Assembly (NCBI GenBank): GCA_030645735.1 | Contig: JAUSNP010000005.1 | Location: forward strand, 8,151-72,150 | Direction of reading: 5' to 3' | Source of the DNA: Candidatus Moraniibacteriota bacterium | GTDB taxonomy: Bacteria; Patescibacteriota; Minisyncoccia; Moranbacterales; UBA2206 | Length of the DNA stretch: 64,000 bases | In this document: positions 34,020 to 58,617 of the stretch, piece after piece | Position numbering within the stretch: the first letter of the stretch is position 1 | Layout of the letters: each line of letters begins with the position of its first letter | The notes under the pieces: generated by a model | What the model was told of the DNA's origin: nothing | Seen by the model: the letters and a program-made list of their open reading frames with translations, nothing else | Databases searched by the model: none | Translations under genes and position numbers: made by a program

Positions 34020-35291
34020 ATGCTGGAAAAAATAACACAGATTTTTAGGGTTAAAGAATTACGCAATAAGATCTTATTCATCATTGGAATTTTAATTATT
34101 TTTCGTTTAATTGCAACCATTCCTGTACCAGGAGTTGATCAAGAACAATTAAAAAACTTTTTTAGTAGCAATCAGTTCTTCGGGCTATTGAATCTTTTCT
34201 CGGGTGGCGGACTCAGTAGTATTTCAATTGTTATGTTGGGTGTCGGTCCATACATCACCGCTTCAATCATCATGCAACTTTTGACGATGATTGTTCCATC
34301 ACTAGAACAAATTTACAAAGAAGAGGGTGAGGCTGGTCGACAAAAATTCAATCAATGGACTCGTTGGGCAACTGTGCCTTTGGCAGCTTTGCAAACTTTT
34401 GGAATGATTTCACTTTTGCGCTCACAAAATATTTTGGGTGCAGTTTCAAGTTTTGAAATGTTTTCTATTATCACCGTGGCAATCGCTGGAACAATTTTGC
34501 TGATGTGGTTGGGGGAGCTTATCACAGAAAAGAAAATTGGTAACGGTGTTTCTCTGATCATCTTTGCGGGAATCGTAGCTGGTTTGCCAGCGAGCCTTTC
34601 TCAAATTTCAGCGACTTTTGATTCATCCCAACTCTTCACTTATATTATTTTAGGTGCAGTTATTATTGCAGCTATTTTTGGGGTGGTTATTATGACCGAA
34701 GGCCAAAGAAATATTCCAGTTTCCTATGCTAAAAGAATTCGGGGTAACAAAATGTTTGGTGGGTCTTCGACTCATTTGCCATTGCGTGTCAATCAAGCGG
34801 GGGTGATTCCAATCATCTTTGCTATGTCAATTATGTTGTTTCCCGGTATGATTGCCAATTTTTTGGCGACTGCTTCCAATCCGACGGTGGCGAGTATTGC
34901 TAAGAGTGTCGGCAACATTTTTCAAAATCAACTTTTCTATGGTTCAGCCTACTTTGTGTTGGTAGTGGCTTTCACTTATTTCTACACCGCGGTAGTTTTT
35001 GATCCACACAAAATTTCTGAAAGTTTGCAAAAACAAGGTGGTTACATTCCAGGCATTCGACCAGGAAAAACCACCGCGGAATATCTATACAAAATTATCA
35101 ATCGCACAACTTTGTCAGGTGCCATCTTTTTGGGCACCATCGCAGTTTTGCCATTTGTCATTCAAGGCTTCACAAATATGAAATCAATCTCCATTGGCGG
35201 AACTGGTCTTTTGATTGTTGTTTCAGTAGTCATTGAAACAGTGAAACAAATTGAAGGACAGTTGGTGATGAGGGACTATGAAGGATTTTAA
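34020..35291 (+). CDS. secY: preprotein translocase SecY
   Basis: 423 aa, 10 TM helices, SecY signature. Confidence 0.95.
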   Translation: MLEKITQIFRVKELRNKILFIIGILIIFRLIATIPVPGVDQEQLKNFFSSNQFFGLLNLFSGGGLSSISIVMLGVGPYITASIIMQLLTMIVPSLEQIYKEEGEAGRQKFNQWTRWATVPLAALQTFGMISLLRSQNILGAVSSFEMFSIITVAIAGTILLMWLGELITEKKIGNGVSLIIFAGIVAGLPASLSQISATFDSSQLFTYIILGAVIIAAIFGVVIMTEGQRNIPVSYAKRIRGNKMFGGSSTHLPLRVNQAGVIPIIFAMSIMLFPGMIANFLATASNPTVASIAKSVGNIFQNQLFYGSAYFVLVVAFTYFYTAVVFDPHKISESLQKQGGYIPGIRPGKTTAEYLYKIINRTTLSGAIFLGTIAVLPFVIQGFTNMKSISIGGTGLLIVVSVVIETVKQIEGQLVMRDYEGF

Positions 35292-35356
35292 TCGCGAAAC
35301 GTAAAACGCATAACGCATAACGCGATTTGCGTTCCACGTTCCATGTTCAACGTTAA
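35289..35356 (+). repeat. intergenic heptamer tandem-repeat array (family member A)
   Basis: aatcgcgaaacgtaaaacgcATAACGCATAACGCgatttgcgTTCCACGTTCCATGTTCAACG, then 7 nt, then the adk ATG. Confidence 0.7.
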
Positions 35357-36007
35357 ATGAATATTATCATCTTAGGACAACAAGGCAGTGGCAAAGGAAC
35401 TCAGGCTGAGTTTTTAGCTAAAGAAATGAGTTTGATCCATATCGACATGGGCAAGACTTTGCGTGAGGTTGCAAAACTGGACACACCGTTAGGACGAGAG
35501 ATATATGATATCCAAAATGTCACCAAAACTCTTGTGCCAAGCCGAATTTTGCGTGAGGTTTTGCATTTTAAGCTTGGGTCAATCCCTAGCGAGCAGGGTA
35601 TTGTTTTCGATGGTGTTCCAAGAACAATGGATCAATCTGAATATATGGAAGAAGCTTTGCAAGAGTTTGGCAGAAAAATTAACGCGGTCTTTTTTATAAA
35701 TATTTCTGAGGCAGAATCAATTAAGCGAATTTCTAAGCGTTGGATATGTAAGGATTGCAAAAGCGTTTTTATTATGGGAAAAGATGTTAAGGATGAAAAA
35801 GAGAAATGTCCAAAATGTGGAGCAGAAATAACACAACGAAATGACGACACAGTTTCTGGCATCAAAAAAAGACTGCAAGTTTTTGCAGAGGAAACAATGC
35901 CAGTGATAAACTATTATAAAGAACAGGGTGTCTTGGTGGAAATCAATGGTGAGCAGGAGATTGAAAAAGTTGCAGGAGAGATTATTAAAAATATAGAGCA
36001 AATATGA
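35357..36007 (+). CDS. adk: adenylate kinase (zinc-finger lid)
   Basis: 216 aa; GQQGSGKGTQ; CKDC...CPKCG. Confidence 0.95.
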   Translation: MNIIILGQQGSGKGTQAEFLAKEMSLIHIDMGKTLREVAKLDTPLGREIYDIQNVTKTLVPSRILREVLHFKLGSIPSEQGIVFDGVPRTMDQSEYMEEALQEFGRKINAVFFINISEAESIKRISKRWICKDCKSVFIMGKDVKDEKEKCPKCGAEITQRNDDTVSGIKKRLQVFAEETMPVINYYKEQGVLVEINGEQEIEKVAGEIIKNIEQI

Positions 36008-36768
36008 TTATAATTAAGACTCAGAAAGAAATAGACGCCATGCGGACGGGTGGGAAAATCCTAGCTTCGGTCATGGAAGAGCTTGGGCGTGTTGTGGCGC
36101 CAGGAAAGAATACTTTTGAAATAGATGCACTAGCGGAAAAATTGATTTTGGAGGCTGGTGGCACTCCAGTTTTCAAAGGTTATGGCAAAGAATCTGGCAA
36201 TCCATTTCCCGCTACAATTTGCGCTTCAATCAATGAGGAAATTGTGCATGGTATTCCTAGCAAAAAACGAGTTTTGCGCGAAGGTGATATTTTCAAAATC
36301 GACATTGGGATGCGCTTTGAGGGGATGATTACAGATATGGCGCGCACATATCCTGTGGGAAAAATTTCGGTGGAAGCGCAAAAAATTCTGGATGTGACGC
36401 GTGAATGTTTGAATGTAGGTATTGAAAAAATACAAGCTGGTAGAAAATTGAGTGACTATTCCGTGGCCGTGCAAAAATATGTGGAAGCGCAGGGTTTTTC
36501 CGTAGTGCGTGATTTAGTGGGACATGGTGTGGGCAAAGATTTGCATGAAGATCCGCATATTCCAAATTATAAATCTCAAGAAAAAGAAATAGTTTTGCAA
36601 TCTGGCATGACCTTGGCGTTGGAGCCGATGATTAATGTTGGAACATATAAAATAAAATTAGCTTCAGATAAATGGACCTATGTAACCGTGGACGGCAAGC
36701 TAAGTGCTCATTTCGAGGACACAGTCTTGGTAACTGAAGTCGGAGTAGAAATTTTAACGCGAAAATAA
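36004..36768 (+). CDS. map: methionine aminopeptidase type I
   Basis: 254 aa. Confidence 0.9.
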   Translation: MIIIKTQKEIDAMRTGGKILASVMEELGRVVAPGKNTFEIDALAEKLILEAGGTPVFKGYGKESGNPFPATICASINEEIVHGIPSKKRVLREGDIFKIDIGMRFEGMITDMARTYPVGKISVEAQKILDVTRECLNVGIEKIQAGRKLSDYSVAVQKYVEAQGFSVVRDLVGHGVGKDLHEDPHIPNYKSQEKEIVLQSGMTLALEPMINVGTYKIKLASDKWTYVTVDGKLSAHFEDTVLVTEVGVEILTRK

Positions 36769-36770
36769 TC

Positions 36771-37181
36771 ATGGAAGAAACATTGGAAACTGAGCATTTT
36801 TTGGGTCTGGATTATGGTAAAGCCAAGATTGGCTTAGCGGTGGCTGATTCAGAGGTGAAAATTGCCTTTGCGCACAGCACTCTGGACAATGACCGAAACG
36901 CTTTAGACAAAATCGGGGATATTATTGTGGCAGAAGCAGTTGGGGTTGTGGTCATTGGCAAGCCCAAAGAAACTGAGCAGTATAATTCTGTGAGTGTTTC
37001 CCGTTTCGCCTCGGAAATTTCGGAATCATTTCCATTGGTCAGGATAGAATTTGAAGATGAAATGTTCACGACTAAAATGGCTGAAGACAGATTGAAGGAA
37101 AAAGGCGCCAAAAAGATTAAAAATCTGGACAATCAAGAAGCAGCCAGGATAATTCTACAGAGCTGGTTGGATCGACAATAA
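36771..37181 (+). CDS. ruvX: Holliday-junction resolvase-like RuvX/YqgF
   Basis: 136 aa; LGLDYGKAKIGLAVAD. Confidence 0.8.
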   Translation: MEETLETEHFLGLDYGKAKIGLAVADSEVKIAFAHSTLDNDRNALDKIGDIIVAEAVGVVVIGKPKETEQYNSVSVSRFASEISESFPLVRIEFEDEMFTTKMAEDRLKEKGAKKIKNLDNQEAARIILQSWLDRQ

Positions 37182-37194
37182 AATGAATATTCCT

Positions 37195-37223
37195 GTAGAG
37201 ACGCCCCGACGGGGCGTCTCTAC
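37195..37223. terminator. perfect palindromic hairpin (terminator-like), element family P
   Basis: GTAGAGACGCCCCgacGGGGCGTCTCTAC followed by ttttg; a near-identical copy lies inside the hypE coding sequence at 47690-47718. Confidence 0.7.
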
Positions 37224-37296
37224 ATTTTGAATCTTGCTTTTTTGTGCTATAATTTACACAAATGCAGCAAGGCATAATCTATTAAGATACAGAAAA

Positions 37297-38055
37297 ATGG
37301 AAGAACAAAATAAACCATATTTGTCAGTTATAATCCCCGCCTATAACGAAGGCTCTCGTAAGGGTGAAGATTTGAAGAAGAATCTAGAAGAGATTGGTTT
37401 GCATTTGCGTGAAAAGGGTGTTAGTTATGAAGTAATTGTGGTGAATGATGGTTCAAAGGATGATACAACGGAGTTCGTTAGGGGCTTATCAGGCTTAGTT
37501 ACTAAACTTGAGGTAATTGATCGTAAAGAAAATCGCGGTAAATGGTATTCCGTGCGCGAAGGTTTGTTGAAAGCTAATGGTAAATTTAGACTTATGACAG
37601 ACGCAGATGGAGCAACCTCAATTATTAACTTGGAAAACTTTTGGCGCGAAATGGAAGCTGGTGAGCAAGTGATAATCGGCTCTCGGGATTTGAAAGAATC
37701 CAACATTCAAAAACATCAACCAAGGTGGAAAGAATTGATGGGCGATGCTGGTAATCTTCTCATTCAGTTTATGATGGGATTGCGTGGACTTGAGGATACG
37801 CAGTGTGGTTTCAAAATGCTTTCAGAAAAAGTTGTGCTGGATGTGGTGCCGCAAATGCAAGTTGATCGTTGGGGTGGAGATTTTGAAATGTTGATGCTGG
37901 CCAGAAAAATGGGCTATCATATCGTAGAAATTCCCGTAGTTTGGGAAGATGCCGGCCTGAGTCTAGTAGGTGCTAGTGGTTACGCAAATACCTTGAAAGA
38001 ACTTTTTCAAGTTAAATGGCGGATGATTATGGGAAAATATAAATATAAGAAGTAA
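37297..38055 (+). CDS. family 2 glycosyltransferase (dolichyl-phosphate mannosyltransferase-like)
   Basis: LSVIIPAYNEG; DGSKDDT; start moved to MEEQNKPYLS. Confidence 0.75.
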   Translation: MEEQNKPYLSVIIPAYNEGSRKGEDLKKNLEEIGLHLREKGVSYEVIVVNDGSKDDTTEFVRGLSGLVTKLEVIDRKENRGKWYSVREGLLKANGKFRLMTDADGATSIINLENFWREMEAGEQVIIGSRDLKESNIQKHQPRWKELMGDAGNLLIQFMMGLRGLEDTQCGFKMLSEKVVLDVVPQMQVDRWGGDFEMLMLARKMGYHIVEIPVVWEDAGLSLVGASGYANTLKELFQVKWRMIMGKYKYKK

Positions 38056-38088
38056 ATTTAGTTTATCGGCAGGATTTAAAATAAAAAA

Positions 38089-39108
38089 GTGGAGCAAAAT
38101 AAAAACAAGAAAAAAATACAATTGACGGAACTGCGCCAAGATTTGGTGACGGGCGACTGGGTGGTGATTGCCACTGGGCGCGCCAAGAGACCAGAGGAGT
38201 TTGCCTCAAGTCGCAGGACGCTCATAGAGGAGGATCAAAGTCATCCATGTTTTTTTTGTCATCCAGAAGAAACAGATCAGGAAAAAGATGTTTTGATTTA
38301 TGAAAAATCCAATGGTGATTGGAGCTTGCGAGTTTTTCCCAATAAATATCCATCTTTCGTGAGCGGACGAGCCCCGAAACATCTGGAAGAGGGTCCCTAT
38401 TTTGCGATGGATGGCACGGGCTATCATGAATTGATTGTGACACGCGATCACCATCGACAAATTGCGCAAATGAATTTTCTGGAAGTGGCTGAAATGATTG
38501 ATGCCTATCAAGAGCGCTATATCGATTTGATGAACAAAAAAAGCGTCAATTACATTGAAGTTTTTCACAATCATGGCAAGGAAGCCGGCGCATCAATTGC
38601 GCATCCACATTCACAGTTGATGGCTATTCCAGTGGTTTCACCATATGTAAAATCGGAACTGGATGGCGCAGAGATGTATCATAGAGCCAACAAGAGTTGC
38701 GTCTATTGCGCGATGATTGCTTGGGAAACTGAACATAAAAAAAGAATTGTTTTTGAAAATGATGATTTCGTGGCCTTCTGTCCTTTTTCATCTCGTGCAG
38801 CTTTTGAAGTTTGGGTTCTGCCGAAAAAACATAAGCCATATTTTGAAAGAACGGCCGACAAAGACAAGATGGCGCTGGCAGAAGTGTTACAAATTTCAAT
38901 TAACAAAGTCTACAAGGCGTTAGAAGATCCAGCCTACAATTTCTACATTCACACCTCGCCGTGTGATGGCAAGGATTATCCGCACTATCATTGGCACATT
39001 GAAATTATTCCGCGCACGGCTGTTTGGGCTGGCTTTGAACTTTCAACTGGCATTGAAGTTTCTTCAATACAACCAGAAATGGCCGCTGAGTATTTAAGAA
39101 AGACTTAA
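38089..39108 (+). CDS. galT: galactose-1-phosphate uridylyltransferase (HIT family)
   Basis: 339 aa; CFFCHPEE and HPHSQL motifs. Confidence 0.8.
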   Translation: MEQNKNKKKIQLTELRQDLVTGDWVVIATGRAKRPEEFASSRRTLIEEDQSHPCFFCHPEETDQEKDVLIYEKSNGDWSLRVFPNKYPSFVSGRAPKHLEEGPYFAMDGTGYHELIVTRDHHRQIAQMNFLEVAEMIDAYQERYIDLMNKKSVNYIEVFHNHGKEAGASIAHPHSQLMAIPVVSPYVKSELDGAEMYHRANKSCVYCAMIAWETEHKKRIVFENDDFVAFCPFSSRAAFEVWVLPKKHKPYFERTADKDKMALAEVLQISINKVYKALEDPAYNFYIHTSPCDGKDYPHYHWHIEIIPRTAVWAGFELSTGIEVSSIQPEMAAEYLRKT

Positions 39109-40522: not shown

Positions 40523-40672
40523 CCAAGAAACAAAAACACAAACACAAACACCTGCCTGCCGGCAGGCAGGAATAACAAATTCAAATATCCAAAATACAAA
40601 CTTTTGATTTTTGAATTTTGAGCATTGGATATTGTTTGGCTATTGTATCTTGCGATTTGGTATTTTAAATCC

Positions 40673-41545: not shown

Positions 41546-41651
41546 AACGTAAATTGTGAAACGCATAACGCGCAACAAAATTATTTGCAAGATATAATTT
41601 TTTTAAAAATATTTCGCGTTTCAGGTTTTGCGATACGCGTTATACGATAAA
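41546..41651 (+). repeat. intergenic heptamer-motif region (family member B)
   Basis: agaacgtaaattgtgaaacgcATAACGCgcaac ... tatttcgcg ... ttgcgatacgcgttatacg upstream of the ATG at 41652. Confidence 0.5.
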
Positions 41652-45811: not shown

Positions 45812-45910
45812 GTCATTCCGGCTTTGAGCCGGAATCTTCTCACTGTAATTGCGAATCTAAATTTATTTCCATGAAACATGGAGGAGATCCCGGGTCAAGC
45901 CCGGGATGAC
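45812..45910. repeat. compound palindromic repeat element (copy 1)
   Basis: GTCATTCCGGCtttgAGCCGGAATC ... GATCCCGGGtcaagCCCGGGATGAC. Confidence 0.7.
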
Positions 45911-47564: not shown

Positions 47565-48562
47565 AATCGGGCGCGGGTGGAGAAAAATCTAATAGTTTGA
47601 TTTCACAAATCCGAAAAAATTTTGCGGTGAGTCGCAAGTGGAAAAATATGCAGGATGATGGTGCGGTTTTTGACCTAGGTATGAACAATGTAGAGACGCC
47701 CCGGCAGGGCGTCTCTACTGCGTCGAATAAATTAGTCTTTACCACCGACGCATTTATTGTGGATCCAATTTTTTTTCCAGGTGGCGACATTGGCAAGATT
47801 GCGATGTGTGGGACAATCAATGATTTGTCAGTGATGGGTGCCAAGCCGATTGGCATTGGTTTGAGTTTGGTGATTGAAGAGGGTTTTCCCGAAGAAGATT
47901 TGCAAAAAATTGTGGCATCAATTGGAAAAGTTTCAGCTGAGTCGGGTGTACCGATTGTGACAGGTGACACCAAAGTCACTGAGCGTGGCAAAATCGACAA
48001 AATTGAAATCACCACCTCTGGTGTTGGATTGGCGAAAAAAATAATTGGAAATAGCGGGGCAAAAGTGGGGGATGTGGTCATTGCTTCTGGCAATTTGGGT
48101 GAACATGCGGTGGCATTGTTGGCCAAGCGTTTCAACTATCAAACGAAAATAAAAAGTGATTGTCAGACACTGACTCGCGAAATTCAAAGCGTTGCTAAAT
48201 ATCTGACTGCTTGCAAGGATCCAACTCGCGGTGGCATGGCAGCGGTACTCAATGAAATTGCGGAAAAATCCAAAGTCAAAATCGTGCTGGCTGAAAACAC
48301 CTTGCCATTTTCCAAAGAAACCGTGGCACTCTCTGAGCTTCTAGGAATTGATAAATTCTCTTTTCCATCGGAAGGGCGCTTTGTGGCCACAGTTCAGCCA
48401 AAGCAAGCCAAAAAAGCCTTGCAGATTTTGCAAAAATTCAATGCTCAGGCCAAAATTATTGGCTCAGTTGAGCCAGGAAAAGGCGTATTCTTGAATACCA
48501 GCCTAGGTGGCACCAAAAAAATCGATGTGCCACGCGGAAAACTAATTCCGAGGATTTGCTAG
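47534..48562 (+). CDS. hypE: hydrogenase maturation factor HypE
   Basis: 342 aa; FTTDAFIVDPIFFPGGDIGKIAMCGTINDL; C-terminal PRIC. Confidence 0.85.
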   Translation: MEREKKTIELESGAGGEKSNSLISQIRKNFAVSRKWKNMQDDGAVFDLGMNNVETPRQGVSTASNKLVFTTDAFIVDPIFFPGGDIGKIAMCGTINDLSVMGAKPIGIGLSLVIEEGFPEEDLQKIVASIGKVSAESGVPIVTGDTKVTERGKIDKIEITTSGVGLAKKIIGNSGAKVGDVVIASGNLGEHAVALLAKRFNYQTKIKSDCQTLTREIQSVAKYLTACKDPTRGGMAAVLNEIAEKSKVKIVLAENTLPFSKETVALSELLGIDKFSFPSEGRFVATVQPKQAKKALQILQKFNAQAKIIGSVEPGKGVFLNTSLGGTKKIDVPRGKLIPRIC

Positions 48563-49753
48563 ATAAAAGATTATTTGTCCAAAAGAAAGTCCTGCATCGC
48601 CACGCGGGATCTTTTTATTTACATAAGCACCTTTCGAGATTAGATATTCAGAGATTATTTTGTTGTTGGCAATGCCACCAGCCAGAAAGATCGGAAGCTG
48701 TAGGGGTTTCACCCCTACAGCTAGGCCTTCCGCGATATAGAGTTGCGCAGTGGCGGCTAGGCGTTTTTTGTCTTTGTGTAAATTTTTTATCAAGTACTCG
48801 AAAAGACAAGTCGTATTTAGGATGACCGATGACCGATGACTGATGACTCTTTCTGGCATCTCAATCTTTGGTTTTATATCCAAATACGGTTTAGTTGAAT
48901 TAGCTTCCAGTTTCAGGATTGGTTCGTGTTTGTGCTTTCTTTCGTTTTTACAAAAACCCAACAAAATAGAGACGGCATCCAAAACTCGGCCACAGCTTGA
49001 AGTTTCGATGCAATTGAAATTTTGTTGCAGCTGATTATATAAAACCTCAAATTCTTGCACTGAATAATATTTTTTTACAAAAGAATAAATAAAATCTTTT
49101 TGAGATTTGAGATTTGAGATTTGAGATTTTCTTGTATCTTGTATTTTGTATCTTGTGATTTTGTCCAGTATGCTAATCAACATTCGCGCTGGTTCCTGAA
49201 TAGCCAATTCTCCACCAATCATCACTTGATTTTCAAGACTCCCAATCCTTTCAATTTTTATTTTTTGTTTTGAAATTTTGTCATTGGAAATTGGAAATTG
49301 TAAATTGGAAATTGCGAAGCATTCACCTCCCCAAATTTTGCCATCGGTGCCATAGCCCGTACCATCCAAAGCGATGCCACAGAATTTAGGTGGTAGTTTG
49401 TAGTTGGTAGTTTGTAGAGCTTTTTCGCCAACTGCAGAAAAGATGTGGGCGATATGGTGTTGGATTTGAATATGTTTGGCCTTATACTTTTTGGCCAAAT
49501 CTTTGCCTAGTATAGTAGTCTTATATAGCGGATGTAAATCAGTCAGAATAATATCCGGTTTGATTTTATTTTTTCTTAAGAATTTGTTCAATTCGTGTTG
49601 GTATTCGTTAAAATTCGTGTCTTTCAAGAGGTCTCCAAAATCTTCAGAAAAGTAAATTTTATTATAGCTAAAAACCGAAAAATTGCCATTGGATTCTGGT
49701 CCAAGAGCTAAGATTTGCTGTTTGTTTTTTTGTGGATAATTGAATACTCGCAT
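48542..49753 (-). CDS. hypF: HypF C-terminal (Kae1/YgjD-like) domain only
   Basis: 403 aa aligning to E. coli HypF residues ~375-750 (ILALGPESNGNF, HHIAHIFSAVGE, FLAGGIANN); no acylphosphatase, Zn-finger or YrdC domains at this locus. Confidence 0.7.
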   Translation of the reverse strand: MRVFNYPQKNKQQILALGPESNGNFSVFSYNKIYFSEDFGDLLKDTNFNEYQHELNKFLRKNKIKPDIILTDLHPLYKTTILGKDLAKKYKAKHIQIQHHIAHIFSAVGEKALQTTNYKLPPKFCGIALDGTGYGTDGKIWGGECFAISNLQFPISNDKISKQKIKIERIGSLENQVMIGGELAIQEPARMLISILDKITRYKIQDTRKSQISNLKSQKDFIYSFVKKYYSVQEFEVLYNQLQQNFNCIETSSCGRVLDAVSILLGFCKNERKHKHEPILKLEANSTKPYLDIKPKIEMPERVISHRSSVILNTTCLFEYLIKNLHKDKKRLAATAQLYIAEGLAVGVKPLQLPIFLAGGIANNKIISEYLISKGAYVNKKIPRGDAGLSFGQIIFYLANPRN

Positions 49754-49772: not shown

Positions 49773-49843
49773 TGTCATTCCCGTGAAAACGGGAATCTAG
49801 TATCGAGGCTTTGTGACTAGATTCCGGCTCAAGGCCGGAATGA
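49773..49843. repeat. compound palindromic repeat element (copy 2)
   Basis: GTCATTCCCGtgaaaACGGGAATC ... GATTCCGGCtcaagGCCGGAATGAC. Confidence 0.7.
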
Positions 49844-50703: not shown

Positions 50704-51963
50704 ATGCAAATAAAAATCAATCATATCGCAAAAATGGAAGGACACGCGGGCTTTATGGCCAGTGTTCTCAATGGCGATGTTAAAAGTGCCAAGCTCGAAG
50801 TGCAAGAGGGAATTCGCCTAATTGAAGGAGTTTTGATTGGTCGGCACTATGCTGATATGCCGACAATTGCTCAGCGCATCTGTGGAATTTGTCCAGTGGT
50901 GCACAATTTGACAGCTATCAAGGCTTTGGAGAGTGCTATGGGTGTTTCCGTGTCGCCTGAGGCTGAAAAATTGCGCGTGGTGATGGAATTGGGTCAAATC
51001 ATACATTCGCACTCCCTGCATCTATTCTTCTTGTCTCTAGCTGATTTCTTGGATATGGATAACGATATTCAACTCATCAGCACCTATCCAGAAGAGGCCA
51101 AAATTGCCATGCGCTTGCGAGATTATGGGATGGATATTGTGCGAGTGATTGGCGGGCGTGTAGTGCATCCTTTGACCAACGAAGTGGGCGGTTTCAAAAA
51201 GGCACCAGACGCAGATGCTCTACGAAAAATCGTGACTGACAGTAGTCAGGCGCTGAAAGATGCAGTGGCGTTAGGAGAATTTTTCAAGAAAATAAAAATC
51301 CCAGATTTTCAACGCGAGACCGAATATATATGTCTAGGAAAAAATGGGGAGTATGCAATTTATGACGGTGATGTAATCTCTTCACAGGGTTTGCACATTC
51401 CAGTGGAAAAATTTGAAAGCAATTTTCAAGAATTGCAAAAACAAACTGAATTGATCAAAAAAGTTGTGCATGAAGGCAAGAGCTATATGATTGGCGCGAT
51501 TGCTAGAATCAACAATAGTCGTGATAAGCTTAGTCCACAGGCTAGCAGTTATCTTGATAGTTTGAATTTCACTTTTCCAGATTACAATCCATTTCATAAC
51601 ATTTTGTGTCAGATGGTGGAGGTTATTCATTGTATTGAACAATCAAGTAAATTGATCAAGGAATTATTGCATTCTGATTTGAACAATGTGGTGACTGGAA
51701 AATATGAAATCAAAGAAGGGGTTGGGGTGGCCGCAGTGGAAGCTCCGCGCGGAACGCTCTATTATCATGTAGAAGTTGATCACAACGGCTATCTGAAAAA
51801 TGTAAATATCATCACGCCAACTGCACAATTCTTGTCGAATTTGGAAGATGATGTGGCAGACTATATCAAAGAAATTATTGACCTGAAAGACGCTGATAAA
51901 CAAAAAAAACTCCGCGGTTTCATTCGTGCCTATGATCCTTGCATTTCTTGCGCAGTACACTAA
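50704..51963 (+). CDS. [NiFe]-hydrogenase large subunit, group-3 type, without a C-terminal extension
   Basis: 419 aa; N-terminal RICGICPVVH; C-terminal DPCISCAVH immediately followed by the stop. Confidence 0.85.
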   Translation: MQIKINHIAKMEGHAGFMASVLNGDVKSAKLEVQEGIRLIEGVLIGRHYADMPTIAQRICGICPVVHNLTAIKALESAMGVSVSPEAEKLRVVMELGQIIHSHSLHLFFLSLADFLDMDNDIQLISTYPEEAKIAMRLRDYGMDIVRVIGGRVVHPLTNEVGGFKKAPDADALRKIVTDSSQALKDAVALGEFFKKIKIPDFQRETEYICLGKNGEYAIYDGDVISSQGLHIPVEKFESNFQELQKQTELIKKVVHEGKSYMIGAIARINNSRDKLSPQASSYLDSLNFTFPDYNPFHNILCQMVEVIHCIEQSSKLIKELLHSDLNNVVTGKYEIKEGVGVAAVEAPRGTLYYHVEVDHNGYLKNVNIITPTAQFLSNLEDDVADYIKEIIDLKDADKQKKLRGFIRAYDPCISCAVH

Positions 51964-52053
51964 GGATATAAATCACTAATCTACACGAATTTTTCACTAA
52001 TAATTCGCGAATATTTGAGAATAATTAGGGATTGATTTGTGACTTAAATCATC

Positions 52054-52431
52054 ATGACTGAATTAAACCAAGTTTATAAATGTAATGTGTGTGGCAATAT
52101 TGTGGAAGTTTTGCACACGGGAGTTGGGGAATTGGTATGTTGCGGACAACCGATGGGATTGCAAATAGAAAAGACTGAAGAAGAAAAATTTGAAAAACAT
52201 CGACCGGTGGTGGAAAAAACGGATGCAGGTGTGATTGTGCGTGTAGGATCTGTGGCGCATCCGATGGAAAGTGAGCATTATATTGAATGGATTGAGGTAA
52301 TCACTGAACACAGAGCATATCGCAAAAATTTGGAACCAGGTGGAGCGCCAGCAGCAGAATTTTTCTTTGATGCTGAGCATTTCGAAGTGCGCGCTTATTG
52401 CAATGTGCATGGGCTGTGGAAGAACGTATAA
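52054..52431 (+). CDS. dfx: desulfoferrodoxin (2Fe superoxide reductase)
   Basis: 125 aa; N-terminal CNVCGN...CCG; centre II H...H...CNVHGLW. Confidence 0.85.
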   Translation: MTELNQVYKCNVCGNIVEVLHTGVGELVCCGQPMGLQIEKTEEEKFEKHRPVVEKTDAGVIVRVGSVAHPMESEHYIEWIEVITEHRAYRKNLEPGGAPAAEFFFDAEHFEVRAYCNVHGLWKNV

Positions 52432-52546
52432 CGTAAATCGCAAAACGTGTAACGCACAACACGCATAATATAAATCGCAAATTGTATAATTTATAACGCA
52501 AATCATGTAACGATTCACGTTCCACGATTCACGTTCCACGAAATTC
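52425..52546 (+). repeat. intergenic heptamer tandem-repeat array (family member C)
   Basis: gaacgTATAACGtaaatcgcaaaacgtgtaacgc ... ATTCACGTTCCACGATTCACGTTCCACGaaattc, then the ATG. Confidence 0.7.
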
Positions 52547-52819
52547 ATGCATGATTTTCTACTAGCCAAAGAAATTGTTGATGAAGTTCTAGCGATTGCT
52601 GCAGAAAAAAAACTGACAGCGATCAAAAGTGTTGATGTTGAAATTGGCACAATCGCTTTGGCGCATGATGGTTTTGATGAGCACACCGAAGATATTGATG
52701 TGGAAAATCTTCAATTTGGACTAGAAAACATTGCTAAAAACACAATATTGAAAAATACCGAGTTTAAGTTTAAAAAAGTATCAGGGGATAATTGGAAAAT
52801 CACCAACATCGAAATCTAA
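52547..52819 (+). CDS. HypA-like hydrogenase nickel-insertion protein lacking the zinc-finger cysteines
   Basis: 90 aa; MHDFLLAKEIVDEVL...VDVEIGTIA matches the HypA N-terminus (MHE motif); no Cys anywhere in the protein. Confidence 0.45.
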   Translation: MHDFLLAKEIVDEVLAIAAEKKLTAIKSVDVEIGTIALAHDGFDEHTEDIDVENLQFGLENIAKNTILKNTEFKFKKVSGDNWKITNIEI

Positions 52820-53845: not shown

Positions 53846-54015
53846 TTTTTTTGTAGGTATTTATTAAAAATTTTAAAATCCAAAATTCAAAGCATCAAAT
53901 TCCAAATAAATTACAATGACCAAAATATAAAATTCAAAAAAAACTTTTGGATTTTGAAAATTGCAATTTTAAATTTATTTGTTATTTATGATTTTGGGTT
54001 TTGAAATTAACTTTT

Positions 54016-55587
54016 ATGTTCGACATCATAATAAAAAACGGGACACTAATTGACGGTAGTGGCAAACCAATGTATCGGGCGGATATTGGCATTAAGGATG
54101 ATCGGATTGCTAAAATTGGTGATTTGCACAATGAAAAAAGTGATTTGGAGATTGATGCTTCAGAGCGCTTGGTTTGTCCTGGGTTTGTGGATGTCAATAA
54201 TCATAGCGACACCTATTGGCAAATTTTTGCTAATCCGAACTTGGAAAGTTTAGTACATCAAGGCATCACCACAATTGTGGGTGGAAATTGTGGCGCATCG
54301 CTGGCGCCACTTCTTGGCGCTAATGCAATATCTTCGGTGCAAAAATGGGCCAACATCAGTCAGACCAGTTTGGATTGGTTGACAATGGAAGAATTTCTGG
54401 ATGTAGTTGAGCGAAAAAAAATGTCTGTAAACTTTGCCACTCTAGTGGGTCATGCAACTTTGCGACGAAGTATTTTGGGTGACGATATGCGAAATTTGAA
54501 TGTTAAAGAAGTTGATTTTTTGGCCAATAAATTAGCCACTGCTATGAAAGATGGCGCGCTAGGAATGTCTTCTGGCTTGATTTATTCGCATGCTAGAAGC
54601 ACTACAACAGATGAATTGGTGAATCTTTCCCAAACAATAGAAAAATATAATGGCGTGTATGTGACGCATATGCGCAATGAAAATTCCGATATTATTGCGG
54701 CAACAGAAGAGGCAATAGAGATTGCCAGAAAATCAAAAGTGAAATTACACATCTCTCATTTAAAAGTGATGGGTGAAAAAAATTGGGGCATGATGGATGG
54801 CGCACTTGATGCGATTTCTCGAGCAAATGAAGTTGGGCTGGATGTTTCCTTTGATGTTTTCCCCTACACCAATACAGGTTCAGTTTTGTATACGCTTTTG
54901 CCAGACTGGGTAACGGATGGTGGAAAAAAGATGCTGTTGAGTCGCTTAAAAAATCTAGAGACGCGAGCCAAGCTAGTGGCTGAAATGAAAGAATCGGGAA
55001 TTGATTATGCTAAAATTGAAATTGCTATTTCTCCGCTGAACAAAACTTTGGCGCGCCGAAAAATTTCTGAAATTGCGACTTCACAGGAAAAAACTATTGA
55101 AGACACGGTCATTGATATCTTGCTTGCGTCAGAAGGCCGTGTGATTATTTCCCTGGATGTTTTGAGTGAAGAAAATATTGCTAAGGCAATCGTGCATCCA
55201 GCCTCGATGATTTCTACTAATGGCTCGGGTTATGCTGACACTCACAGTAAGACTGGTGAGATGGTGCATCCGCGAAGCTTTGGCACCTTTCCAAGAATTT
55301 TGTCAAAATATGTTCTAGGCAAAAGAATCATTAGTTGGGAAGAGGCCGTGAAAAAAATGACTTCGATGCCGGCGCAAAAGTTTGGCATCGAAAGACGCGG
55401 GGAATTGAAAGAGAAATATTTTGCGGATATTGTGGTTATCAATCGTGATGAAATTCGTGACATGGCTACACCAGAAAATCCTTATCAGTATAACAAGGGA
55501 ATTGACTTTGTTTTGGTGAATGGACAGATTGTGCTACAAGATGGTATATATAATAATGGTCGCAATGGCCGGGTAATTAGACGCTAG
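54016..55587 (+). CDS. D-aminoacylase / N-acyl-D-amino-acid deacylase-family amidohydrolase
   Basis: IKNGTLIDGSG...PGFVDVNNHSD; start moved to MFDIIIKNG. Confidence 0.7.
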   Translation: MFDIIIKNGTLIDGSGKPMYRADIGIKDDRIAKIGDLHNEKSDLEIDASERLVCPGFVDVNNHSDTYWQIFANPNLESLVHQGITTIVGGNCGASLAPLLGANAISSVQKWANISQTSLDWLTMEEFLDVVERKKMSVNFATLVGHATLRRSILGDDMRNLNVKEVDFLANKLATAMKDGALGMSSGLIYSHARSTTTDELVNLSQTIEKYNGVYVTHMRNENSDIIAATEEAIEIARKSKVKLHISHLKVMGEKNWGMMDGALDAISRANEVGLDVSFDVFPYTNTGSVLYTLLPDWVTDGGKKMLLSRLKNLETRAKLVAEMKESGIDYAKIEIAISPLNKTLARRKISEIATSQEKTIEDTVIDILLASEGRVIISLDVLSEENIAKAIVHPASMISTNGSGYADTHSKTGEMVHPRSFGTFPRILSKYVLGKRIISWEEAVKKMTSMPAQKFGIERRGELKEKYFADIVVINRDEIRDMATPENPYQYNKGIDFVLVNGQIVLQDGIYNNGRNGRVIRR

Positions 55588-55598
55588 AGCCTATTTAG

Positions 55599-56996
55599 GT
55601 GAAATTGATGAATATATCTGAGTTGCAAGGTAAAAAAATAACAGTTATGGGTCTTGGCCTACATGGCGGTGGAGTTGGCACTGTGCGTTTTTTGCATGCC
55701 GCAGGCGCCATTTTGACCGTGACTGACATGAAATCAGAGGTCGAGTTGCAACCATCACTAGAAAAATTGAAAGAATTGGACGGAATCAAGTATGTCTTAG
55801 GCAGGCATGAGGTTGAAGATTTTTCTCAGGCAGATATGATTGTGAAAACTCCGCCAATTCCATGGACTAATGAGTTCATAAAGATAGCTCTAGAAAAAAA
55901 TATTCCAGTGGAAATTGACTCTAGCTTGTTTTTTAAATTGTGTCCAAATCTAATCATTGGCGTGACTGGCACACGTGGCAAGACCACAACTTCCAGTTTG
56001 ATTTATGGAATTTTGAAAATGGCTGGCAAAAATCCAGTGAAGGTTGGAATTGGCCAAGTTTCAGTTTTGGACAAGCTGAATGAATTGCAAGAAGATTCAA
56101 TTGTGGTTTTTGAACTTTCCAGTTGGCGCTTGAGTGCTTTGGGTCGTCACAAATTGAGTCCAAAAATTGCCGTGGTGACCAATATCTATCCAGATCATTT
56201 GAACTATTATGGTTCAATGGATGAATATGTAGCAGACAAGAAAAATATTTTCTTAGATCAAGCCGAGGATGGTATTTGTGTTTTGAATTGGGATAATGAA
56301 GTGGTGCGTGGATTTGAAAAAGAAATTAGAGCCAAGATAATAAAAATTTCTACCAAAGAAAAGCCAACTGGATTAGCAGTTTTTGTTCGAGAGGGTCAAA
56401 TTGTGATTGGGGATGAGACTGGCGAGAAAAATATTTTGACTGTGTCAGATATAAAAATGAAAGGCGAGCATAATTTAGCCAATATTCTAGAAGCCGTGGC
56501 GGTTGCGCATTGGATGAAGATTGATGATGAAAATATTGCTAAGGCTGTTGTAGACTTTTCTGGCTTACCACATCGCTTGGAATTTGTGAAAGAAATTGAC
56601 GGCGTGAAATATTACAACGATACAGCAGCTACTTCACCAGAAGGCGCGATTGCTGGTATCAATTCTTTTTCAGAAAAAATTGTTTTGATTGCAGGTGGGT
56701 CAGATAAAAATTTAGATATGACAGTATTGGCCAAGGAGATTTCGGAAAAAGTGAAAACGGTTATTTTTTTGAAAGGTGTGGCGACAGATAAGATAATTGC
56801 TGCTATGCAGGCACAGGGCAGTGAGCAAGATTTCATTGTTGTGAGCTCAATGCTGGATGCAGTGGAAGAAGCGCGCAAACAAGCTTCCTCTGGTGATGTG
56901 GTTTTGCTTTCACCTGGATCAGCTAGTTTTGGTTTATTTTTGAACGAATTTGATCGCGGAGACAAGTTTAAGGCGGTTGTTGATGGCCTAAAATAA
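55599..56996 (+). CDS. murD: UDP-N-acetylmuramoylalanine--D-glutamate ligase
   Basis: 465 aa; Mur ligase P-loop GVTGTRGKTTT, MurD-type N-terminal Rossmann. Confidence 0.8.
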   Translation: MKLMNISELQGKKITVMGLGLHGGGVGTVRFLHAAGAILTVTDMKSEVELQPSLEKLKELDGIKYVLGRHEVEDFSQADMIVKTPPIPWTNEFIKIALEKNIPVEIDSSLFFKLCPNLIIGVTGTRGKTTTSSLIYGILKMAGKNPVKVGIGQVSVLDKLNELQEDSIVVFELSSWRLSALGRHKLSPKIAVVTNIYPDHLNYYGSMDEYVADKKNIFLDQAEDGICVLNWDNEVVRGFEKEIRAKIIKISTKEKPTGLAVFVREGQIVIGDETGEKNILTVSDIKMKGEHNLANILEAVAVAHWMKIDDENIAKAVVDFSGLPHRLEFVKEIDGVKYYNDTAATSPEGAIAGINSFSEKIVLIAGGSDKNLDMTVLAKEISEKVKTVIFLKGVATDKIIAAMQAQGSEQDFIVVSSMLDAVEEARKQASSGDVVLLSPGSASFGLFLNEFDRGDKFKAVVDGLK

Positions 56997-57067
56997 GCTG
57001 AGGCTAGCGACTATGGACAAAGATTTTATATCTGTTATAATAAATTACAGTTTTTGAGTTTGAATAT

Positions 57068-57141
57068 GGGCCCTTAGCTCAGCTGGCTAGAGCGCCTCGT
57101 TTGCACCGAGGAGGTCAGGAGTTCGAATCCCCTAGGGTCCA
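57068..57141 (+). tRNA. tRNA-Ala(TGC)
   Basis: cloverleaf with G3:U70, anticodon loop tTTGCAc; CCA not encoded. Confidence 0.85.
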
Positions 57142-57173
57142 CCCATATTACAAATATAGAAAAGAAAAACAAT

Positions 57174-57223
57174 GGGCGTGTAGCTCAGTTGGTTAGAGCA
57201 AGCCCGCCACGGCGGGTAATGAC
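57174..57223 (+). pseudogene. tRNA-Ile 5' fragment with its anticodon arm replaced by a GC palindrome
   Basis: 26 nt identical to the tRNA-Ile 5' end, then aaGCCCGCCacGGCGGGTAATGAC; no T-arm. Confidence 0.6.
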
Positions 57224-57253
57224 AGTCGATTTGCAGAGTTTAAAATAAAGCAT

Positions 57254-57327
57254 GGGCGTGTAGCTCAGTTGGTTAGAGCGCGTCACTGATAATGACGAGG
57301 TCCCCAGTTCGAATCTAGGCACGCCCA
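57254..57327 (+). tRNA. tRNA-Ile(GAT)
   Basis: GGGCGTGtaGCTCagttggttaGAGCgCGTCActGATaaTGACGaggtc...TTCGAATC...CACGCCCa. Confidence 0.85.
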
Positions 57328-57328
57328 C

Positions 57329-57589
57329 ATGTTTACTACATACATCATCAAAAACTGTAGTGGGAAGAGTTATACAGGAAGTACTGAAAATGTGAAAGAA
57401 AGGATTTTGATGCACAACGATATTTCTGTAGAAAAAGCAAGATTTCATAGAACTACTTATAATAAGGGTCCATGGTCAATCTTTTTTAGTAAGGATTTTG
57501 AAACTAGAAAAGAATCTTTGGATTTTGAGAAATTTCTTAAAACAGGTGCGGGAAGAGAGTGGTTAGAGCGCGCCCGCCGCGGCGGGTAA
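57329..57589 (+). CDS. small GIY-YIG nuclease-family protein
   Basis: 86 aa; YIIKNCSGKSYTGSTENVKERILMHN; the last ~11 codons are read from tRNA-Ile-derived sequence. Confidence 0.65.
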   Translation: MFTTYIIKNCSGKSYTGSTENVKERILMHNDISVEKARFHRTTYNKGPWSIFFSKDFETRKESLDFEKFLKTGAGREWLERARRGG

Positions 57590-57624
57590 TGACGAGGTCC
57601 CCAGTTCGAATCTAGGCACGCCCA
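57558..57624 (+). pseudogene. tRNA-Ile 3' fragment (D-loop to 3' end) with the anticodon arm replaced by a GC palindrome
   Basis: GGTTAGAGCGcgCCCGCCgcGGCGGGTAATGACGAGGTCCCCAGTTCGAATCTAGGCACGCCCA; the last 40 nt are identical to the intact tRNA-Ile. Confidence 0.6.
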
Positions 57625-57635
57625 CATAGTTGAAA

Positions 57636-57662
57636 AATTGATCCGCAGGGATCTTTTTTTGT
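57636..57662 (+). terminator. rho-independent terminator
   Basis: GATCCgcagGGATC plus T7. Confidence 0.7.
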
Positions 57663-57667
57663 TGGTA

Positions 57668-57695
57668 TTGACAGTTGGGGTCTAATAATATAAAC
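57668..57695 (+). promoter_or_regulatory. promoter of the secE-nusG-rplKA operon
   Basis: TTGACAgttggggtctaataaTATAAA. Confidence 0.5.
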
Positions 57696-57798
57696 TTATC
57701 TATAGAAAAGCCTCAGGGGCTTTTTAAAAAAGCTTTAAAAGACAAAATAGTGAATTTTGGCTTAAATAAGGCAAATTTATCCATAAAAATAGAAAAAT

Positions 57799-57987
57799 AT
57801 GGCAAATCAAATCGTGACTTTTTTGCAAGAAGCCAAGACGGAATTAACTAAGGTCAATTGGCCAAGTAAGAAGCAGGCTACTAACTATACAATTCTAGTC
57901 ATTGGAATTAGCATCGCCGGTGCGATTTTTTTGGGAAGTTTAGATTATTTTTTTGGTTATTTATTAAAAACATTTATTATAAAATAA
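57799..57987 (+). CDS. secE: preprotein translocase SecE
   Basis: 62 aa, single C-terminal TM helix. Confidence 0.8.
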   Translation: MANQIVTFLQEAKTELTKVNWPSKKQATNYTILVIGISIAGAIFLGSLDYFFGYLLKTFIIK

Positions 57988-57988
57988 T

Positions 57989-58534
57989 ATGGCAAAACAA
58001 ACCCAACATCACGGGCGCGCCTGGTATGTAATCCACACTTATAGTGGATATGAAGACAATGTGGCTCGTAACTTGAAACAAAGAATCGAATCAATGGATA
58101 TGCAGGATTTGATTTTCGATGTCATGGTGCCGATTGAACGAAAAATCAAGATCAAGGCTGGCAAAAGAACAGTTGTCGAAGAAAAGATCTATCCGGGATA
58201 TGTATTGGTGGAAATGATGGTGACGGATGCTTCATGGTATGTAGTGCGAAACACTCCAAACGTGACTGGATTCATCGGGCTTGGTACAACTCCAACTCCA
58301 GTTGATCCAGCTGAAATTGAAATGTTGAAGAAAAGAATGGGTGTGTCTGAACCAAAATACAAGATTGATGTCCAAGTTGGTGATTCCATCAAAGTTGTGG
58401 ACGGACCATTCAAGGATTTTGATGCGAAAGTTGATGAAGTCGATGAAGCCAAAGGAAGAGTCAAAGTTTTGGTTTCAATCTTCGGACGAGAAACGCCAGT
58501 TGAATTGGATTTTCTACAAATTCATAAATTATAA
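57989..58534 (+). CDS. nusG: transcription antiterminator NusG
   Basis: 181 aa; NGN domain WYVIHTYSGYE, KOW. Confidence 0.9.
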   Translation: MAKQTQHHGRAWYVIHTYSGYEDNVARNLKQRIESMDMQDLIFDVMVPIERKIKIKAGKRTVVEEKIYPGYVLVEMMVTDASWYVVRNTPNVTGFIGLGTTPTPVDPAEIEMLKKRMGVSEPKYKIDVQVGDSIKVVDGPFKDFDAKVDEVDEAKGRVKVLVSIFGRETPVELDFLQIHKL

Positions 58535-58617
58535 ATCATATAACGCAAAACGCATAACGTGAAACGCATAACTCTTTAATGATTTACGTTCCACGTTCCA
58601 CGTTCCACGAAAATATT
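58535..58617 (+). repeat. intergenic heptamer tandem-repeat array (family member D)
   Basis: tcatATAACGCAAAACGCATAACGtGAAACGCATAACtctttaatgatttacgTTCCACGTTCCACGTTCCACGaaaatatt, then the ATG. Confidence 0.7.

Follow-up and report, generated by a model that had tools for sequence, protein, structure and literature searches.

What are the short tandem repeats that fill several gene junctions in an uncultured Candidatus Moraniibacteriota bacterium, and do they serve the genes that follow them? The stretch in question, here called the window, comprises 64,000 nucleotides of contig JAUSNP010000005.1 (assembly GCA_030645735.1, positions 8,151 to 72,150). A first-pass annotation had pointed to four arrays of tandem heptamers between same-strand genes, just upstream of adk, a nuoE-like gene, hypA and rplK, and had proposed a lineage-specific cis element, for example a translation-initiation or RNA-binding-protein site, or an array bound by a transcription factor. 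Reading the positions directly and assigning the flanking genes with Pfam, we found all four arrays where they had been placed. We observed that these arrays, here called the AACGC/CGTTCC family, are one family within a class of quasi-palindromic intercistronic cassettes of 65-125 nt that occurs throughout Candidatus Moranbacteria. Judged from the sequence comparisons, their swapping between junctions appears too fast for fixed regulators of these four genes.

All four window cassettes are quasi-palindromes, in which left-arm (A/G)(A/T)AACG(C/T) repeats stand opposite CGTT-type repeats (Table 1). In four of four spacers the right arm repeats the left arm in inverted, imperfect form around the common core AACG...CGTT, a relation that the first-pass annotation had not noted. 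The left-arm unit ATAACGC has GCGTTAT as its reverse complement, and the units ACGTTCC and ACGATTC derive from the latter. The order first described (left heptamers, then TTCCACG or ATTCACG) holds for cassettes 1, 3 and 4 but not for cassette 2. The latter is a symmetric variant with zero TTCCACG/ATTCACG units, and its right arm is of the GCGTTAT type, the plain reverse complement of ATAACGC. The arrays had also been said to stop 5-10 nt before the ATG, which is incorrect for cassette 1, where the repeat reaches the ATG itself (TTCCACG TTCCATG TTCAACG TTAAATG). In cassette 3 the repeat register begins in the last dfx codons, and the dfx stop codon (52429-52431) lies within the second unit. Copies of the family share their ends, TAA(A)ATCGCA... 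on the left and ...CACGATAAA on the right, the latter being followed by 2-5 nt and the ATG. The rplK start was mis-called through cassette 4, with the open reading frame (ORF) extended to 58579.

The claim that the arrays are non-random was borne out. The motif AACG-N3-AACG occurred 13 times in the window, whereas 100 dinucleotide-preserving shuffles gave 1.36+/-1.1 matches and never more than 4. Of the 13 matches, 12 fell inside the four spacers. Similarly, TTCCACGNTYCAYG had 4 matches against 0.25 expected. A period scan for tandem runs of at least three units found nine of period 7 in the window and 0 in the shuffled window; there were three runs of period 6 and none of period 8 or more, and Tandem Repeats Finder (TRF) concurred on the dominance of period 7. 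We also confirmed the partial relatives AATCGCGAA that had been noted in the spacers S19-L22 (27626, 27657) and L16-L29 (29421, 29429); these, however, are part of another cassette family.

Table 1. Repeat cassettes and related features of the window (positions counted from its first letter).
Feature	Location	Positions	Strand	Units or content	Basis
Cassette 1	secY-adk spacer	35292-35356	+		Flanks SecY and Adk by Pfam; motif counts, TRF
Cassette 1, left arm		35296-35323	+	AAACGT AAAACGC ATAACGC ATAACGC; loop GATTT	
Cassette 1, right arm		35329-35356	+	GCGTTCC ACGTTCC ATGTTCA ACGTTAA; adk ATG at 35357	
Cassette 2	Fructose-bisphosphate aldolase-nuoE-like spacer	41546-41651	+		Flanks class-II fructose-bisphosphate aldolase and NuoE-like 2Fe-2S protein by Pfam
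Cassette 2, left arm		41546-41576	+	AACGTAA ATTGTGA AACGCAT AACGCGC AAC	
Cassette 2, centre		41577-41614	+	AT-rich	
Cassette 2, right arm		41615-41651	+	CGCGTTT CAGGTTT TGCGATA CGCGTTA TACGATA AA	
Cassette 3	dfx-hypA (spacer 52432-52546)	52423-52546	+		Flanks desulfoferrodoxin and HypA by Pfam; motif counts, TRF
Cassette 3, left arm		52423-52464	+	AACGTAT AACGTAA ATCGCAA AACGTGT AACGCAC AACACGC	
Cassette 3, centre		52465-52509	+		
Cassette 3, right arm		52510-52541	+	ACGATTC ACGTTCC ACGATTC ACGTTCC ACG; hypA ATG at 52547	
Cassette 4	nusG-rplK spacer	58535-58617	+		Flanks NusG and L11 by Pfam; motif counts, TRF
Cassette 4, left arm		58540-58572	+	ATAACGC AAAACGC ATAACGT GAAACGC ATAAC	
Cassette 4, centre		58573-58585	+		
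Cassette 4, right arm		58586-58609	+	(ACGTTCC)x3 ACG, then AAAATATT; rplK ATG at 58618	
Second stop-to-start cassette, copy 1		27616-27726	+	GATATAAATCGCGAATC ... TTAGAGA-type repeats ... ATAACATC ATG	81% column identity to paralogue
Second stop-to-start cassette, copy 2	Hydrogenase large subunit-dfx spacer	51961-52065	+	GATATAAATC...CATCATG	Paralogue of 27616-27726
Same class, different family	Up to aldolase gene start	40523-40624	+	AAACAC repeats, palindrome, TTTTGA(A/T) heptamers	
Same class, different family	Downstream of gap	53846-54000	+	AAAATCC/AAAATTC-type facing TTTTGGA/TTTTGAA-type	Read from sequence
HypF C-terminal-domain ORF		48542-49753	-	C-terminal Kae1-like domains only	Pfam HypF_C, HypF_C_2
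Five in-frame heptamer arrays	HypF C-terminal-domain ORF	48821-48848, 49099-49156, 49283-49314, 49391-49417	-		TRF

We then looked beyond the window. An exact look-up of the window Adk returned no record from public assemblies. A SecY search with one genome per species yielded 80 loci of ~20 kb each (1.33 Mb in total), all from metagenome-assembled genomes of Candidatus Moranbacteria or the Parcubacteria group, with SecY identities of 65-91%; loci and contigs are cited below by L numbers. The 80 loci held 138 arrays of period 7, in comparison to 38 of period 6, 25 of period 8 and 12 of period 9, and shuffled sequence gave 1. Intergenic arrays made up 125 of 147 (85%), though ~80% of the DNA of the loci is ORF. 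The secY-adk spacer of most of the 80 species carried a heptamer run, a short centre and a reverse-complement heptamer run, with unit sequences that differed between species, such as (CATAGAG)3...(GTTCCAT)4, (CATGAAA)n...(GTTTCAT)n, (AGCTTNT)n...(AAAAGCT)n, (AATTTTC)n...(GAAAATT)n and TACGAAT...ATTCGTA. Between species a restricted set of unit families recurred, with at least 10 unrelated unit sequences, and several families occurred together in one genome. Spacers with arrays exceeded their own shuffles in self-complementarity (median fold z -2.6 sense and -2.4 antisense), and did so more than other spacers (-1.8 and -1.6). Arrays were found in 5.4% of co-directional, 4.2% of convergent and 4.4% of divergent spacers as called by a crude ORF caller; several of the 'convergent' cases are artefacts, since this caller misses small ribosomal-protein genes, and we regard the comparison as uninformative.

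What had been suspected as a lineage-specific family of cis sequences is thus not confined to four spots: copies were present in other Moranbacteria genomes and in metagenome contigs resembling the Candidate Phyla Radiation (CPR). At junctions not orthologous to those of the window, AACGC/CGTTCC copies were found in S3-L16 (L024), L6-L18 and L18-S5 (both L060), L5-S14 (L045), S8-L6 (L104) and L32-nusB (L096), before atpG (L088), and in several of the CPR-like contigs. L039 held near-identical paralogous cassette copies in one genome, and one copy of the family lay inside the lgt ORF of L085. The metagenome search gave 32 matches, about half of which were single chance matches in GC-rich contigs; we used the low-GC contigs with extended arrays and three GC-rich arrays (L093, L101, L111). 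Scans of viral contigs gave 1 and 12 matches, the 12 for a 17-mer being close to chance by a rough, uncomputed estimate. A few of these 12 were real arrays, in unrelated phage contigs, and these scans gave no evidence for phage carriage.

A second dispersed cassette family in the window (Table 1; copies also delimited as 27619-27723 and 51964-52062) is not built of heptamers. It reads GATATAAATC...ATAACATCATG, in the pattern TAA-GATATAAATCRC-AATC ... TTAGAGA/TTAGTGA repeats ... ATAACATCATG. In close relatives it occupies nusG-rplK in L115 (2849-2962) and secE-nusG in L113 (9900-10003). The latter junction is filled in L113 where the window has an empty TAATATG. This family moves likewise.

To which end of the spacer are the arrays tied? 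In 47 spacers with two detected arms, the median distance from the stop codon to the left arm was 2 nt; 43 of the 47 left arms began no more than 15 nt from the stop, and a quarter overlapped it. Between the end of the right arm and the start codon the median was 10 nt, and 34 of the 47 right arms ended no more than 15 nt away. In the 27 long spacers (at least 160 nt), however, the arrays lay a median of 17 nt from the stop and 118 nt from the start, and several of these spacers had a promoter-like TGnTATAAT box downstream of the array. The constant anchor of the arrays is the upstream stop codon and not the downstream start. In short spacers the arrays abut the start (0-10 nt) because the cassette is the entire spacer.

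The first-pass annotation had remarked that the four genes lack an obvious Shine-Dalgarno (SD) motif. This is true, but it is not special to them, since SD absence is genome-wide: SD-like motifs precede only 3-4 of the 69 + strand genes of the window, and start contexts are A/T-rich instead. The anti-SD sequence is reported absent in about half of Parcubacteria (PMC9297842). A promoter scan found no sigma-70 consensus on the + strand of the four spacers, and no intrinsic terminator (GC-rich stem-loop plus T-run on the gene strand) was found on the + strand there. We rejected an internal promoter or terminator role, the + strand scans being empty in the arrays; the same scans found no minus-strand promoter of note in them. 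A known RNA family (ribosomal-protein leader, riboswitch or small RNA) was likewise rejected, as a cmscan of the whole window against Rfam at E<=1 returned two tRNAs and four sub-threshold chance matches, none of them in the arrays. Avoidance of upstream ATGs was considered as the cause of the ATG to CCA/ACG changes in right arms. This was also rejected, since other copies and families (L033, L035, L039, L065, L066 and L088) retain three or four upstream ATGs.

The idea that the arrays are conserved regulatory sites for adk, nuoE, hypA and rplK found no support: orthologous spacers are not conserved, and the arrays track the stop codon more closely than the start. The lengths of secY-adk spacers were bimodal, with 55-302 nt in 56 of 71 species and 1-32 nt in the other 15, in which the element is thus dispensable. 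Between L046 and L049 the flanks were 97-100% identical, yet their secY-adk spacers come from unrelated families; the close relatives L032 and L033 also had unrelated spacers at this junction, with adk replaced as well. In both pairs of near-identical genomes a diverged allele has taken the place of adk, either the whole gene or its 5' portion, and of the spacer before it (around locus position 11270); identity falls from ~97% to 51-72% and recovers after adk. This allele replacement indicates a recombination hot spot.

Similarly, we compared the nusG-rplK junction among relatives whose NusG is 96-99% identical to that of the window. Their spacers could not be aligned with that of the window, although the window nusG and rplK DNA was 88-95% identical to theirs in every 60-nt bin, up to the stop and start codons. 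The spacers of the window, L116 and L115 were unalignable, and relatives with nusG DNA of 91-92% identity had unrelated spacers. As a control, the spacer downstream of rplA was ~95% identical between the window and L115 over the first ~110 aligned columns, and 84% overall. At secE-nusG, the window and L114 have TAATATG, while L115 and L113 carry insertions of ~70 nt (76-nt spacer) and ~97 nt (104-nt spacer). In the one filled and empty pair compared, the difference fits a simple insertion between TAA and TATG with no duplication. L096 and L099, otherwise identical contigs, differ in the copy number of a flanking hexamer.

The folding of the cassettes depends on the strand. On the sense (mRNA) strand the four window spacers folded at -13.8 to -22.8 kcal/mol (z -0.9 to -2.0), whereas the complementary strand gave -25.1 to -41.4 kcal/mol (z -2.5 to -5.6). 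The sense and antisense values were -16.3 (z -1.5) and -25.8 (z -3.0) for cassette 1, -22.8 and -25.1 for cassette 2, -18.9 (z -0.9) and -41.4 (z -3.8) for cassette 3, and -13.8 (z -2.0) and -30.5 (z -5.6) for cassette 4. With DNA parameters, copy W4 gave -14.9 antisense versus -8.9 sense. The antisense strand folds better because C.A/A.C mismatches between the arms on the sense strand become U.G/G.U pairs on the antisense strand. L045 has an uninterrupted 23-bp antisense helix, and right-arm variants elsewhere (sense CGTTCCA to CGCTCCA to CGCCCCA) keep antisense pairing by G.U while sense pairing is broken. The symmetric copies L085, L088 and L090 contain both CATAACG/TGGAACG and CGTTATG/CGTTCCA units; they are very stable, equally so on both strands, with hairpins of -41 to -57 kcal/mol right at the start codon. 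When all heptamer families were taken together, 42 spacers favoured antisense and 32 favoured sense, which is no consistent preference; the asymmetry is family-specific and could have arisen once and been inherited. A sense mRNA hairpin that joins stop to start for translational coupling was rejected as a general rule, given sense z values of -0.9 to -2.0 and families that are split.

We tentatively favour the reading that the four arrays belong to a class of extragenic palindromic cassettes that are selfish or mobile, copied between junctions and grown by 7-nt slippage. The arms would lengthen and shorten by replication slippage, and whole cassettes would be copied between gene junctions and genomes and lost again, as their distribution suggests; slippage as the generator, copying rather than convergence, and near-neutrality are what we infer. 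The cassettes would be co-transcribed as the untranslated spacer of operon mRNAs, and the A.C mismatches between the arms would leave the sense RNA weakly structured and the SD-less start accessible, which is probably why copies are tolerated in essential operons. Several observations weigh against this reading. In all asymmetric copies of the family the antisense strand is 6-24 kcal/mol more stable, with Watson-Crick and G.U pairs only, and the polarity relative to genes is constant in 11 of 11 asymmetric copies with identifiable neighbours. Mutation bias was rejected as the cause, because the skew of the + strand (G>C, +0.18; GC3 +0.14; T3>A3) predicts G.U pairs in the sense orientation; the arrays, which have C>G, show the reverse. 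Polarity and antisense helices have the look of selection acting on one strand, and would not be expected of a purely selfish DNA palindrome. Some spacers are better conserved than their flanks (L039 and L066 share a 100% identical 78-nt spacer between flanks of 78-84% identity; L055 and L058 have 0.96 versus 0.81, and L001 and L008 0.94 versus 0.77), and this could be purifying selection instead of recent transfer, although the L039 and L066 spacer, a near-identical copy in diverged genomes, also counts in favour of copying. In the one filled and empty pair compared we found neither a target-site duplication nor, outside the heptamer arms, a conserved terminal inverted repeat, and no transposase or other mobility machinery was identified among the annotated genes. 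Finally, the exact match of cassette ends to stop and start codons would be unusual for a transposon.

Could the arrays instead act in the mRNA? As a functional element for SD-independent downstream initiation, their G-poor runs would be a landing pad or binding array (for S1, Csp-type or OB-fold proteins), or they would serve termination-reinitiation. The near absence of SD motifs (3-4 of 69 genes, with part of Parcubacteria lacking the anti-SD; PMC9297842) suits this idea, as do right arms that end 0-10 nt before the ATG in short spacers, the constant polarity, a weakly structured sense strand (z -0.9 to -2.0) with C>G, the better conserved spacers, and the similar interpretation of heptamers upstream of starts in other SD-poor lineages (PMC4679880). 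However, the arrays are not conserved at orthologous junctions with 91-92% flank identity and are absent in 15 of 71 species; those in long spacers keep close to the stop (median 17 nt), with the start a long way off (median 118 nt); many different binders would be needed for the unit sequences, of which at least 10 are unrelated; and symmetric copies bury the start codon in hairpins of -41 to -57 kcal/mol, while other copies lie inside ORFs. We regard an mRNA element as rather unlikely. The initiation or RNA-binding role proposed at the outset keeps a hint in the constant polarity, which points to strand-specific selection, but no result obtained demands such a role. It is also possible to take the bottom-strand hairpin as the active form, either as a single-stranded DNA substrate of a recombinase or HUH enzyme (like attC or REP/RAYT, the latter being the REP-associated tyrosine transposase), which is at once a mobility mechanism, or as an antisense RNA. 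In every asymmetric copy the antisense strand is better by 6-24 kcal/mol, substitutions retain G.U pairs, and DNA parameters agree. The attC inverse-core and core heptamers, RYYYAAC and GTTRRRY, offer a lead in their likeness to xxxxAAC...GTTxxxx units. Across families, however, there is no strand preference (42 versus 32), no integrase, RAYT or IS200-type gene was seen among the annotated genes and no notable minus-strand promoter was found, and the asymmetry may have a single origin inherited by all copies. By GC skew, moreover, it is the leading-strand template that folds, and replication does not usually expose this strand as single-stranded DNA. An active bottom-strand hairpin, which we judge distinctly unlikely, is compatible with the mobile-cassette reading, to which it would lend a mechanism.

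Purely local polymerase slippage at each junction, with neither copying nor function, would agree with the preference for heptamers in many bacteria (PMC4679880, PMC4692102), with terminal units that hold the local stop or start codon (TTAAATG in cassette 1, TATAACG TAA in cassette 3), and with arrays that degenerate toward their edges and the hexamer difference between L096 and L099. It is nevertheless highly improbable to us: the same two-arm unit pair with the same termini stands at four junctions of the window and at least eight non-orthologous junctions elsewhere, 78-nt spacers are identical between flanks of ~80% identity, and cassettes that are not repeats also have paralogues. The least probable explanation, in our estimate, is that of double-stranded DNA operators for a heptad-binding protein, for example a ribbon-helix-helix repressor like omega of pSM19035. 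Omega recognises adjoining heptads of 7 bp in both direct and inverted orientation, and the cassettes also have contiguous 7-bp units, direct and then inverted, with a constant 4-bp core (AACG/CGTT). But they lie within operons from stop to start without a promoter consensus, fall into many unit families, turn over rapidly and are dispensable, and tandems of the omega-type heptad WATCACW were absent from the window and all loci. Going further than the mobile-cassette reading, one may speculate that Moranbacteria, and probably other CPR bacteria, share a pool of portable stop-to-start cassettes that form a new class of miniature mobile element. These would be exchanged precisely between junctions and species via a bottom-strand hairpin tolerant of G.U/G.T pairs and a recombinase, with the polarity and the sequence conservation reflecting both transposition chemistry and selection for unfolded mRNA in an SD-less translation system. 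We consider this possible but doubtful.

How do the cassettes compare with known repeats? A preference for 7-nt units is general in bacterial slippage, as far as Mrazek 2007 is summarised in PMC4679880 and PMC4692102. Like the cassettes, the heptanucleotide long simple sequence repeats (LSSR), among them the cyanobacterial short tandemly repeated repetitive sequences (STRR) and the Xanthomonas GGGAATC and Nostoc GGGGAYT repeats (Mrazek 2007; Mazel 1990; Rehm 2015, PMC4692102), favour tandem 7-nt units, are mostly intergenic, vary between close relatives at one junction, include some inverted stem-loop sets and have no assigned function. They differ in that the Moranbacteria units are other ones (no tandem CCCCAGT, TTGGTCA, CAACAGT or GGGAATC was found in the window or any locus), the two-arm inverted stop-to-start layout is the rule, several families share one genome, and the host is a streamlined CPR bacterium. 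G-quadruplexes are no option for the Moranbacteria arrays, since the units are not G-rich. The TAACTGA repeats described in cyanobacteria, Bacteroidetes and marine Beggiatoaceae (MacGregor 2015, PMC4679880), for which a role like that of the mRNA element above was proposed, place heptamers a few nt before SD-less starts, as the four window arrays do. They likewise occur in ribosomal-protein operon junctions, keep a fixed 'forward' orientation and have a patchy distribution suggesting transfer. They are, however, essentially one-armed (169 direct sets versus 1 indirect), whereas the Moranbacteria elements are bipartite, inverted and anchored at the stop; TAACTGA tandems numbered 0 in the window and loci. 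In the library that we searched, no paper named Patescibacteria together with heptanucleotide repeats.

With REP, BIME and REPIN sequences (Bertels & Rainey 2011, PMC3116915; Di Nocera 2013, PMC3733652) the cassettes share the form of dispersed short imperfect extragenic palindromes, a place just past stop codons in or at the end of operons, co-transcription, lineage specificity and copying within a genome. REPs, however, are single hairpins of 20-40 nt with a GTAG/CGTC tag and a RAYT gene, whereas the Moranbacteria arms are tandem heptamer arrays. No GTAG/CGTC tag was found at the cassette ends, which are TAA-ATCGCA... and ...CACGATAAA at a length of 65-125 nt. No RAYT (Y1 HUH transposase) was noticed among the genes annotated in the 64-kb window and the ~20-kb loci. 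Correia elements of Neisseria, enterobacterial ERIC sequences and Rickettsia palindromic elements (RPEs), miniature inverted-repeat elements of small genomes, are 100-150 nt long, with inverted ends, presence or absence between strains, insertion beside or inside genes, and co-transcription; RPEs insert in frame into ORFs, and all three are without internal tandem periodicity. Presence or absence at a fixed site, multiple similar copies and in-frame copies in ORFs (hypF, lgt) are shared with the cassettes. The attC sites are imperfect palindromes of 57-141 nt directly downstream of an ORF, of variable sequence and conserved architecture, with only the bottom strand active. They differ as single core sites in cassette arrays beside an integrase, while the Moranbacteria elements are multiple tandem units between essential syntenic genes; no integrase was found in the window. 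Taken together, the two-arm inverted stop-to-start layout, the coexisting unit families, the cassette-like replacement at fixed junctions and the streamlined CPR host set the elements apart. They have the period of 7, the intergenic position and the variability in common with the LSSR/STRR and TAACTGA repeats, and dispersal and palindromy with the REP/REPIN sequences.

Heptamers also occur inside a coding sequence of the window. Just five genes of the window were called on the minus strand, and one of them, the HypF C-terminal-domain ORF, contains in-frame arrays with the + strand units GATGACC x3.9, TTTGAGA x4.4, TCTTGTA x3.9, ATTGGAA x4.6 and GTAGTTT x3.6, which coincide with insertions of 8-11 residues relative to solved HypF (PDB 4g9i). 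Within the repeat spacer before the aldolase gene, a perfect 20-nt palindrome, CCTGCCTGCCGGCAGGCAGG (40551-40570), is nested between two arms. Its 18-mer recurs in L023 and L032, and close variants lie within repeat spacers of L003, L066 and L113; the palindrome may be a mini-insertion targeting such arrays. Inverted ACATTCT(C/G) sets occur around 18.4-18.9 kb (18404-18477, 18823-18885), and a succession of three ribosomal-protein spacers (31910-32955) carries repeats of the ATAAGAC(AC) type. GC-rich REP-like palindromes of the form (GTC)ATTCCSG-N4-10-CSGGAAT(GAC) were found in two long spacers (45815-45835, 49777-49796, 49821-49841). One of them fits ATTCCC-N8-GGGAAT, and a related sequence is translated within the lgt ORF of L085 (PRRRESRE...).

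The rplK-rplA spacer (59044-59138) contains UUGUGGGAG...GGACCAC, which is kept in L113, L114, L115, L117 and L119. It resembles an L1-binding autoregulatory leader and has no Rfam match. The mechanical start of the rplA ORF, GTG 59092, falls inside this leader-like spacer, and the real start is probably ATG 59139 (MFRGKKY). The spacer downstream of rplA (window 59806-59953; L115 4220-4393) holds a terminator-like hairpin, CACTGGCTTTGGTCAGTG, with a T-run, flanked by inverted 8-nt arrays in which GTTAACAT-type units face TGTTAAAA-type units. This spacer is a vertically inherited period-8 relative of the heptamer cassettes. A DnaA-box-like 9-mer, TTATCCACA (usually GTTATCCACAG), lies on the + strand at 3810-3818, 8429-8437, 19914-19922 and 22880-22888, in each case 8-15 nt upstream of a -35/-10-like hexamer pair in one of four intergenic regions; the minus strand has a further three (17134, 49731, 62019). 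The 9-mer resembles a promoter-proximal operator or UP-type element common to these regions.

In practice, the cassettes cause mis-called starts, as with rplK at 58579, and are likely break points of metagenome assemblies. The genomes of CPR/Patescibacteria are regarded as highly streamlined. In the genomes compared here, however, ribosomal-protein, ATP-synthase and hydrogenase operons bear repeat cassettes of 65-125 nt at many junctions, and the exchange of these cassettes outpaces the divergence of synonymous sites. If the cassettes are functional, they bear on the translation of internal cistrons in bacteria without Shine-Dalgarno pairing. If mobile, they represent a type of element not described before, with which recombination and strains could be followed in a phylum that is uncultured.

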